Assembly: GCA_963695545.1 (NCBI GenBank)
Contig: OY968796.1
Location: 1,056,001 to 1,120,000 of the forward strand
Length of the DNA stretch: 64,000 nt
From: Terriglobia bacterium
GTDB lineage: Bacteria > Acidobacteriota > Terriglobia > Acidiferrales > UBA7541
Direction: 5' to 3'
The notes under the pieces are model-generated. The model was not told the DNA's origin and searched no databases. It saw nothing but the letters and a program-made list of their open reading frames with translations. Shown here in pieces: positions 28,253 through 30,276 of the stretch (positions are counted from its first letter, which is position 1; the number at the start of each line of letters is the position of its first letter). Position numbers and translations under genes: made by a program.

Positions 28253-28660
28253 CTACCTCTTTGGAATCTGACCGCTCATCAACGCGCGGCTCGAAGCAAT
28301 CCGATGATCCAGCGCCACGGCCGCAAAGTAAGCGCATCCGCCGCGTTCGCCCTCGAGCCAATCCGCAAAGCCGCGCGACGTCCATCCCAGCGAAGTACGC
28401 ACGCCGCCCAAAAACGCGTAGTAGAGGCGAACTGGAGCCAGCGCCGGACCGCTGCCGGCCAGCACCGGGCACAGGCGCATCAGTTGCAGCACGCGGCCGA
28501 ACTCGCCTCCGCTGACATTCCGCACGGTGAAACCCGTGACCGCTCGCGCTTGTCCCGATAGCTCCAGATCCCGCGATGCGCGAACCAACGCGTGGCAGTA
28601 GCAGACGAAAAACTGCAAGAGCGCGGTTACCGAGATCACGAGAATCAGAAAGTCCATCAT
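28253..28660 (-). CDS. Hypothetical membrane-anchored protein (135 aa), third gene of the peptide/7TM operon
   Basis: ATG 28660 overlaps the upstream TGA (ATGA); N-terminal hydrophobic helix DFLILVISVTALLQFFVCYC. Confidence 0.75.
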   Translation of the reverse strand: MMDFLILVISVTALLQFFVCYCHALVRASRDLELSGQARAVTGFTVRNVSGGEFGRVLQLMRLCPVLAGSGPALAPVRLYYAFLGGVRTSLGWTSRGFADWLEGERGGCAYFAAVALDHRIASSRALMSGQIPKR

Positions 28661-29376
28661 CGGTTCGACATCGGATCCGAAATCGGACCGGAAGCCGCGA
28701 CGCTGGCCACAGCCAGTCGCGCATCCTCGCCGACTTGCGAATAGGTGTAGGCCCACGCGGCGGGCAGGCAAATTCCCAGAATTGGCGGCATGTATTGCCA
28801 GAGTGTGATGCGTGGATAGAGATTGCACAGCGCATACGTCGCGGCAAATGCGCTGAAATAGACGCCGAGCGAAAGCACGAACTGAATCAGCCGAGTGCGC
28901 GTCTCGCGAAGCTTCATCACCGCGCCCCACAGAACGTAGGTGAGCACCAGACCCACGAAATAAAGATTCTGCGAAAGCTCCACCACAAACAGCGTCAACA
29001 TCTTGCCGTGCGACGCTGCCACAATCTTCAGCGAGACTCCCGCGGTGGCCAGCAGGATGAGCATCGCTCCTGCTCGAACGTATTTTCCCAGGCCCAGTTC
29101 AGCGAAAACGTGCGTGTACAAACCCATCAGCACGAAGAAGAGAAAGATTGACAACAGTACGTCGGAATAGAAGTAGAAATAAAAGTATTGGTGGGAATTG
29201 TAGCCGTGAGTTTTCAGGATGCCGTAGCTGACAATCGTGAAAACACCCGCTGTCACGATGTACAGATTGAGGGTGAAATATTTGAAAAAGGACTTGGAGC
29301 GGATTGCGCACACCAGTGCGAGAGCATCCATAAGGACGCTTGCAGCCCATAACACGTAATCAGCCGGACTCAGCAA
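28657..29376 (-). CDS. Predicted 7-TM integral membrane protein (239 aa)
   Basis: Seven hydrophobic segments with short loops; rich in Tyr, Phe and Trp; TTG start after GAAAGG. Confidence 0.8.
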   Translation of the reverse strand: MLSPADYVLWAASVLMDALALVCAIRSKSFFKYFTLNLYIVTAGVFTIVSYGILKTHGYNSHQYFYFYFYSDVLLSIFLFFVLMGLYTHVFAELGLGKYVRAGAMLILLATAGVSLKIVAASHGKMLTLFVVELSQNLYFVGLVLTYVLWGAVMKLRETRTRLIQFVLSLGVYFSAFAATYALCNLYPRITLWQYMPPILGICLPAAWAYTYSQVGEDARLAVASVAASGPISDPMSNR

Positions 29377-29403
29377 CCATGCCTTTCAGCAGCTGAGTCC
29401 GAC

Positions 29404-29430
29404 AAACTAAGGCCAACGAGGCCTTAGTTT
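29404..29430 (-). terminator. Hairpin (weak terminator or mRNA stabiliser) between precursor and 7TM gene
   Basis: Perfect 11-bp stem AAACTAAGGCC / GGCCTTAGTTT with a 5-nt loop, 7 nt after the precursor stop. Confidence 0.65.
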
Positions 29431-29437
29431 TTCAGCT

Positions 29438-29776
29438 TCAGCTCACCACCGCGGGCGGTGGTAGAGGCGGAACCGGCCCACCGATATTAGCGGTGAGTAC
29501 GCTTCCCCGGGCCGGCGGCGGTAGTGGCGGAACTGGCCCACCGATATTAGCGGTGAGTACGTTCGCCCTTACCGGTGGTGGTAGCGGCGGAACTGGCCCA
29601 CCGATGTTAGCGGTGAGCACGTTCGCCCTGGCCGGCGGTGGCAACGGCGGAACTGGCCCGCCGATGTTAGCAACGAGTGCGCTCGTGCCGGCATGATGCG
29701 CCGTCACGACCCCACCCATGGCTCCCGTAAGTACCAACAACGTTGCTACTACGACTACTGCGAGGTACTTGGGCAT
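29438..29776 (-). CDS. Secreted multi-core peptide precursor (112 aa; 4 x ANIGGPVPPLPPP)
   Basis: GGAGG RBS before ATG 29776; signal-peptide-like N-terminus; repeat cores differ only at synonymous positions, which supports this reading frame. Confidence 0.85.
   Translation of the reverse strand: MPKYLAVVVVATLLVLTGAMGGVVTAHHAGTSALVANIGGPVPPLPPPARANVLTANIGGPVPPLPPPVRANVLTANIGGPVPPLPPPARGSVLTANIGGPVPPLPPPAVVS
29453..29671 (-). repeat. 60-nt coding tandem repeat, four copies
   Basis: Cores at 29633-29671, 29573-29611, 29513-29551 and 29453-29491. Confidence 0.95.
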
Positions 29777-30150
29777 ATAGCCCTCCGAGAGAGACAACAA
29801 CGGAGGGACTATACACCGAACTGTGCCAGAATGGTACTAAAGTACTATTTTTTCTTCGTACGCGAACACCCCCGGCTTTGGCCGTCCCGGCGGGGTCTAG
29901 CCCGCCAAACCGGCCAATTGCCTGGAAATGTCCCGCTGTCAGGGTAAGAACACGGACCATCGCGAACAATAGTACGGAAGTTCTAATGGGCTAACGGATT
30001 GGAATCTCGTGACGCAGCACCTTCCTCGAAGCTGTGCCGTTGCGGCACAGAGCGCCCGCGGCGCAGCCTCCGCTGGCTCGACGAGCGTCTTCCGAACTCC
30101 GCGTGCCGCGCTACGCGGTGTTATCCGAGCTGTGCCCGGCTTTCGCGCGC

Positions 30151-30180
30151 TTGACAGTCACGGAAGCGCATCCGTACCAT
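30151..30180 (+). promoter_or_regulatory. Putative sigma70 promoter for the tRNA
   Basis: TTGACA-18 nt-TACCAT about 20 nt upstream of the tRNA. Confidence 0.65.
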
Positions 30181-30201: not shown

Positions 30202-30276
30202 GCCGGCGTAGCTCAGGGGTAGAGCGAGGGTCTCATAATCCCTAGGTCGTGGGTTCGAGTCCCACCACCGGCACCA
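30202..30276 (+). tRNA. tRNA with CAT anticodon, most likely elongator tRNA-Met
   Basis: Cloverleaf: GCTC/GAGC D-stem, CTCATAA anticodon loop, GTGGG-TTCGAGT-CCCAC T arm, encoded CCA. G1-C72 argues against initiator tRNA. Confidence 0.93.

Follow-up and report, generated by a model that had tools for sequence, protein, structure and literature searches.

A repeated proline-rich peptide gene beside a predicted seven-helix membrane protein: a candidate peptide-signalling module of Acidobacteria

What is made by a gene that spells the same short proline-rich core four times, in copies of DNA that have drifted apart without changing a single amino acid? Such a gene lies on the minus strand of a 64,000-nucleotide stretch of DNA from a Terriglobia bacterium, hereafter the window (Table 1). 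The initial annotation of this locus had proposed a processed peptide under purifying selection. The chief feature absent from it is the conserved seven-helix (7TM) membrane protein encoded downstream, together with its partner. In this study, the cores, their precursor and the adjoining genes were compared across related genomes, and the readings that could account for them were weighed.

Table 1 Features of the peptide module in the window (all on the minus strand)
Feature	Position	Strand	Basis or remark
Peptide precursor gene, 112 aa	29438..29776	-	ATG, GGAGGG 4 nt upstream; RNA contigs
Likely Sec signal peptide or signal anchor, residues 1-26	29699..29776	-	Sequence
Core copy 1	29671-29633	-	Sequence; likely mature start at the Asn after Ala
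Core copy 2	29611-29573	-	Sequence
Core copy 3	29551-29513	-	Sequence
Core copy 4	29491-29453	-	Sequence; four residues and the stop codon come next
Likely -10 element TATAGT of the peptide gene	29808..29813	-	By eye, from upstream regions of relatives
5' leader hairpin including the ribosome-binding site of the peptide gene	29781-29807	-	Similar pairing visible in many relatives
Palindrome GTGT-N11-RCAC, left half	29865..29872	-	Complete in many relatives
Perfect 11-bp hairpin between peptide and 7TM genes	29404..29430	-	z -6.0 for the 86-nt region
Second predicted hairpin, over the 7TM ribosome-binding site and TTG start	29367-29400	-	Folding prediction
7TM membrane protein, 239 aa, likely receptor	28657..29376	-	AlphaFold2 model, structure search, topology
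Membrane-anchored helical partner, 135 aa	28253..28660	-	ATGA overlap with the 7TM stop codon

Silent divergence of the cores and processing of the precursor

A sequence scan of the window located ANIGGPVPPLPPP in four identical copies. Eight of its 13 codons vary among the copies (the Asn, Gly, Leu and five Pro codons), and the nine variable nucleotide columns, eight at third and one at first codon positions, cause no amino-acid change; a recount of the copies thereby bore out the initial annotation. The four cores are separated by at least 10 changes, all silent, for which the neutral chance is about 1e-5, a figure that is partly circular because the core had been picked for being identical. 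A core defined by position, starting four residues ahead of each motif's first Pro and ending six residues past it, gave 11 silent and 0 replacement changes between adjacent copies of the window gene, against 5 silent and 4 replacement changes in the spacers. The linkers read ARANVLT, VRANVLT and ARGSVLT, as had been claimed, and both silent and replacement changes are present in them among copies 2-4. The Ala of the ALVA and VLTA motifs is the first Ala of the core itself, one residue counted in both. Metatranscriptome contigs without differing letters over 29500-29781 and 29377-29588 support the four-copy sequence from outside the assembly.

The comparison of cores with linkers that the initial annotation had suggested was extended to homologues by a looser rule, which collected 118 precursors: 35 with a single core, a few of which are false picks and none of which enters the pair counts, and 83 with 2-13 copies. 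Between adjacent cores of the 83 multi-copy precursors pS was 0.479 and pN 0.026 (ratio 0.055), and between equal-length spacers of the same precursors 0.354 and 0.096 (ratio 0.27); these are uncorrected values from related genomes, for copies that share at least 6 of 11 residues and have the anchor Pro fixed by definition. At a 7TM identity near 92%, position-matched copies of two loci differ no more than copies within one gene (9 pairs, some of them near-duplicates), and the duplications are therefore old. The silent divergence, the low core ratio across the family and this age speak against a recent slippage repeat and a generic Pro linker, in agreement with the earlier view.

Purifying selection on an exact peptide, also proposed there, holds within a gene but not between species. 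Precursors carry 1-13 copies with cores identical within the gene, yet 109 distinct cores occur among the 118 precursors, and all copies of a gene change together from one species to the next. In place of the NIGG- of the window gene, its closest relatives have TLGG-, TIGG-, TAIG-, NGFG- or NGSA-. Mean core identity is 0.33 for 7TM identities of 20-30% and climbs to 0.99 where the 7TM proteins are at least 90% identical, a trend that is confounded by kinship, which alone can yield it. At the level of sequence, uniformity within genes combined with diversity between species is the pattern of pherotype-like ligands. One core, at locus L015, has a GPGPIPSPHGGGH ending and, presumably, resembles plant PIP/CEP peptides.

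The precursor consists of a hydrophobic N-terminus, a short pro-region and the four cores, and its layout is common to 30 of 30 loci of relatives, one of which (L005) ends at a contig edge. By eye, residues 1-26 hold a Lys in the n-region and then a hydrophobic stretch, a feature also found in relatives, and the precursor is likely exported via Sec. The ribosome-binding site of the gene is strong. Six metatranscriptome contigs without differing letters cover 29351-29871 (four of four RNA runs, all from one study), which suggests that the peptide gene is transcribed, DNA carry-over in the libraries being the alternative source. In the same runs the 7TM, partner and tilS genes had no contig coverage, and such contigs cannot rank expression. 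The exact precursor sequence is absent from a collection of 15 billion proteins.

The likely -10 element was not picked up by a consensus promoter scan. Farther upstream, the full palindrome GTGT-N11-RCAC was found in 43 of 68 closer loci against 1.9 expected from shuffles, for a pattern that was picked after viewing the data, and in 0 of 43 distant loci. In relatives it precedes the precursor start by about 90-105 nt; the corresponding region of the window (29848-29872) keeps the left half only, and its own genome has no full site. The palindrome may serve as an operator or fold into an RNA hairpin. The hairpin between the peptide and 7TM genes is modestly conserved (z < -2 in 38 of 110 relatives) and is a possible attenuator or mRNA stabiliser, and the second hairpin, if it forms as predicted, would hold 7TM translation low. 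A tRNA-Met at 30202-30276, the sole match in an Rfam search, points away from the peptide gene and has a sigma-70-like promoter at 30151-30180; tRNA-like sequence also occurs upstream in several relatives.

As to the mature product, an N-terminal boundary after Ala, already part of the initial annotation, gained support from the 10 closest loci, where 31 of 34 cores are preceded by Ala and the other three by Arg, without a spacer. An Ala stands five residues ahead of the first Pro in 62% of the 118 first cores and in 38% of later cores. Because Ala precedes the cores, NIGGPVPPLPPP is favoured as the product, a peptide of 12 residues that a cut after Ala would release. Release near Arg, by contrast, was not supported: Lys or Arg follows 42 of 204 internal cores, a dibasic site none of the 204, and most close relatives lack the Arg, so that an Arg site is not general. 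The C-terminal end would be trimmed as far as the Pro run. In the neighbouring ORFs scanned (84 of 299, E 1e-12) there is no recurrent protease or tailoring enzyme, trans-acting enzymes being the alternative, and no recurring cyclisation or hydroxylation enzyme was found among these 84 either.

The 7TM protein, its partner and their distribution

The 7TM gene begins 61 nt after the peptide gene. The AlphaFold2 model of its product has seven helices (pLDDT 86.8), and a wide structural search returned a designed GPCR fold as the best match (Z 14.7, rmsd 3.4, 190 aligned), with LYCHOS (Z 13.5), EP2 (13.2), GABA-B (13.0), Ste2 (12.5) and heliorhodopsin (10.8) among further matches; nearly all 50 rows were GPCR-fold or rhodopsin entries. 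Foldseek placed bacteriorhodopsin in the top row (E 0.013) and gave no match at E ≤0.001. The protein is predicted to be GPCR/rhodopsin-like in shape, and since Z values of about 13 are near the level that helical bundles reach by common arrangement, these model-based scores are to be read as shape, as neither homology nor function. Lys and Arg number 2.5-3.3 per inner loop against 0.9-1.5 per outer loop, a distribution that predicts an N-out, C-in topology. Among the conserved positions are a Tyr-rich stretch, located at the first outer loop and where TM3 begins, and Glu/Asn in TM5; by residue type they comprise Tyr, Gly, Ser, Asp, Glu and Asn. The columns conserved at ≥75% contain neither His nor Cys, and no metal-binding motif is conserved. 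TM7 is without Lys in 144 of 144 rows of one alignment (A6) and has it in 1 of 76 rows of another (A3). Complex prediction with 7TM residues 1-226 (A6) and a 32-residue two-core segment (A5) gave a score of 0.01, the mark being 0.32, which weighs neither for nor against binding.

No Pfam or NCBIfam family matched the 7TM protein, no Pfam family recurs among 76 members, and a PDB profile search produced weak V-ATPase subunit e matches only. Close homologues are annotated merely as "hypothetical protein", some of them from Candidatus Acidiferrales, and the close matches in the Atlas are unnamed Acidobacteriota clusters only. In one homologue, P0213, the 7TM part is preceded by a zf-HC2 domain of the anti-sigma type and one additional helix, a single case whose layout would fit the N-out topology and a sensing role. 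Two further homologues, P0253 and P0254, have terminal extensions. Longer fused forms were absent among 8000 candidates, which is weak evidence. A PAS-GGDEF-EAL protein matched weakly in its membrane part (hhalign probability 33%) and was dropped as a relative; a 772-aa membrane protein was rejected as an LptF/G-type permease by eye.

In most loci inspected, the partner gene comes next after the 7TM gene, usually with a 4-nt overlap, and it is absent in some families. Its AlphaFold2 model (pLDDT 89.8) comprises an N-terminal membrane helix and a helical domain without a clear fold match (best Z 6.6; Foldseek best E 1.6), and the protein is likely a transducer or accessory subunit. Neither precursor nor partner has a Pfam or NCBIfam family, and no known output domain was found in the 7TM protein or the partner. 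Two tandem stand-alone copies of the partner, without 7TM or peptide, occur elsewhere in the same genome (C1:1707124-1708056, L174), next to what by eye are nucleotide-sugar-enzyme-like genes and a fabH-like gene.

The 7TM protein was matched in 35 of 41 related genomes, its own included, and in all 30 retrieved loci of relatives a Pro-rich ORF with 1-7 cores ends 48-92 nt upstream of it. Within the class, 115 of 201 genomes had a match to a wider profile; the family of the genome under study contributed 31 of 31 and one other family 0 of 26. Across the phylum 30 of 251 genomes matched, a few of them weakly, and a representative library yielded 620 matches. By one fixed rule, an ORF with a signal and a Pro-rich segment was present within 220 nt upstream of 117 of 151 distinct 7TM genes, a set that leaves out 6 genes with too little upstream DNA and 4 with the N-terminus missing. 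The same rule passed 63 of 2563 control ORFs of the genome under study, two of which are the genome's own modules. The other 34 of the 151 comprise 4 second members of tandems and 30 that fail the rule; about 10 of the 30 have, by eye, a less Pro-rich or more distant precursor, and the remainder look peptide-less. No peptide is visible beside the 7TM genes at L036, L046, L098 (three in tandem), L102 and L114. Such peptide-less genes may encode orphan receptors. The module keeps a fixed site and has been passed on largely by vertical descent, as indicated by the same-family genomes and by a tree, a quick version with 78 of 146 rows for descriptive use, and no match was found in 50,697 phage records.

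Downstream of the three genes of the window lie tilS and then an ftsH-like gene, the latter recognised by eye; with a tRNA and an epimerase these make up the neighbourhood, in which no regulator is nearby. The same genome holds a second module (C1:2567100-2565375) with a different, single core. Its locus (C1:2565375-2568357, L040) reads, in order, XRE-type HTH, divergent 159-aa gene, peptide, 7TM, partner and REC-HD-GYP, and the XRE-linked layout recurs in L041, L045, L083-L085, L170 and L171. A REC-HD-GYP protein, histidine kinase, response regulator, GGDEF protein or sigma-54 activator accounted for 12 of the 84 neighbours scanned, and a minority of modules have such signalling genes beside them. 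In one family (L087, L089, L093, L096, L101) an AAA_22 (ExeA-like) ATPase gene is located directly upstream of the peptide gene, and L087, L099 and L107 have an OmpA-family gene on the downstream side of the 7TM gene.

A receptor reading and its rivals

The reading that we regard as fairly probable is that of a peptide signal, a 7TM receptor and a membrane-anchored transducer. Its observed part is the three-gene unit, its conservation, the selection on the cores, the copy number, the species-specific cores and the RNA contigs. The remainder of the mechanism would run as follows: the precursor, exported by Sec, would be cut after Ala into identical 12-residue peptides whose C-terminal ends would be trimmed to the Pro run, several cores per gene giving a higher peptide dose. 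Polyproline helices are usually bound by aromatic surfaces, and the peptide would bind its cognate 7TM protein at the conserved Tyr-rich outer face (G58, S61, Y64, Y68 and D72, with E133/N137). The 7TM protein would then signal inward via the membrane-anchored partner, which may act on trans-acting transcription or c-di-GMP regulators with a quorum- or envelope-state-type output. This reading is supported by the linkage of peptide and 7TM genes (117/151 against 63/2563), the core selection, the specificity pattern, the fold and the topology, and further by the zf-HC2 domain of P0213, the position of the second module beside XRE and REC-HD-GYP genes, the 12 signalling genes among 84 neighbours and the RNA contigs over the peptide gene. 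It is weakened by the lack of an output domain, of a fused form and of a regulator at the tilS-ftsH site, by fold scores that common helical arrangements can reach and the absence of a Foldseek match at E ≤0.001, by the 30 of 151 7TM genes that fail the peptide rule, by families without the partner and by the lack of a dedicated protease nearby.

An unlikely alternative is that the precursor stays uncut in the periplasm, where its N-terminal helix might tether it and where it would serve the 7TM protein as a multivalent cis ligand; its loss or cleavage would then tell the same cell about the state of its envelope or proteases. In favour of this, members of the closer family are alike in the N-terminal helix and the segment that follows, several precursors (L002, L024, L144) lack spacers between cores, there is no common dibasic site, and a 12-mer would not diffuse readily across a diderm envelope. 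A defined processed product, however, would fit the 1-13 identical cores per gene, the many precursors that end at or just past the last core, and the fixed four residues between Ala and the first Pro. It is quite improbable that the 7TM protein is instead the processing enzyme or transporter of the peptide, with the true receptor elsewhere. Substrate and maturation enzyme are often adjacent, as in agrD/agrB, and no other dedicated protease recurs near the module; yet the 7TM protein lacks a conserved His, Cys or metal-binding motif, its fold matches receptors rather than proteases or transporters, and the precursor carries a signal-like N-terminus of its own.

Rapid core diversification, tight linkage and 7TM copies without a peptide would also suit a bacteriocin-like peptide with the 7TM protein and partner as immunity proteins, and multi-copy precursors of Pro-rich antimicrobials exist, for example that of apidaecin. 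Pro-rich antimicrobials are Arg-rich, however, whereas the cores of the module are mostly uncharged, and the largely vertical inheritance at a fixed site, the absence of phage matches and the signalling genes among the neighbours make this explanation very improbable. Hardly credible, finally, is a structural, low-complexity polyproline protein without a specific partner. Silent changes are common in such a sequence because Pro and Gly codons are highly degenerate (a silent share of 32% among single changes), but the core pN/pS ratio is low despite correction for this degeneracy and the linkage to 7TM genes is far above background, by which that view is largely refuted.

Relation to known peptide systems

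The module is built similarly to yeast alpha-factor/Ste2 and fungal KEPs, with a signal and repeated near-identical cores (PMC6339444), the module's secretion signal having been judged by hydrophobicity. The dibasic KEX2 sites of the fungal precursors flank none of the module's 204 internal cores. The module further differs from the yeast system in being bacterial, in having no G protein and no Pfam match, and in the adjacency of peptide and 7TM genes followed by the partner. With GPCRs the 7TM protein shares the predicted bundle and the N-out/C-in arrangement (Z 13-14.7), but by sequence it matched no GPCR family, and the module has an unrelated helical partner instead of a G protein. Microbial rhodopsins have a 7TM fold like that of the module, but their retinal-binding Lys in TM7 is absent here and no rhodopsin family matched.

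According to a review of Gram-positive systems (PMC7595303), either histidine kinases or cytoplasmic RRNPP proteins detect the peptide signals. CSP-ComDE and BIP-BlpHR, treated in the same review, resemble the module in a small peptide gene beside a membrane protein and in pherotype-like diversity, but the module has no double-glycine leader, C39 ABC exporter, kinase domain or fixed response regulator, and has several cores per precursor and a diderm host. The RRNPP systems Phr-Rap and PapR-PlcR (PMC7595303) likewise have a Sec-type precursor, a short peptide and an adjacent partner; theirs is a cytoplasmic TPR regulator, whereas the module pairs a core of the form xGGxPxPPxP with a membrane 7TM protein. 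No TPR family was found among the neighbours in the window or the 84 neighbours scanned at E 1e-12. RiPP loci with dedicated modifying enzymes contain a conserved adjacent tailoring enzyme, and none recurs in the 84 of 299 neighbouring ORFs of the module that were scanned. AgrB, CPBP, M48/M50, rhomboid and exosortase peptidases have catalytic His, Cys, HExxH or GxSG residues; these are not conserved in the 7TM protein, which matched no such family. The plant CLE, CEP, PIP and IDA peptides and the hydroxyproline-rich systemins combine a signal peptide with one or more short Pro-rich cores, some precursors being multi-core, and have LRR kinases as receptors. Their likeness to the module is a resemblance, not a claim of homology, and no hydroxylase recurs near the module.

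Neither the module nor any peptide signalling in Acidobacteria was described in the mainly open-access literature covered by a full-text search. The module is real, widespread in Acidobacteria and undescribed in that literature, its function being what we infer; the design of peptide signal and receptor is known from yeast, and no bacterial case was found in the same search. Acidobacteria may, as a more tentative idea that we hold to be about as plausible as not but no better, possess a eukaryote-like peptide-hormone system, with species-specific Pro-rich peptides, stand-alone GPCR-fold receptors, a non-G-protein membrane transducer, several paralogous channels in each genome, and receptors without a peptide that perhaps hear neighbours. 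If the receptor reading is true, a peptide-sensing GPCR-fold protein in a diderm phylum that is abundant in soil would be a third route besides kinases and RRNPP proteins. The cores, short and apparently without modification, can readily be synthesised, and more than 100 natural peptide-receptor pairs would be at hand for specificity tests. The module would then allow the origin of peptide-binding 7TM receptors to be studied in a testable prokaryotic model.
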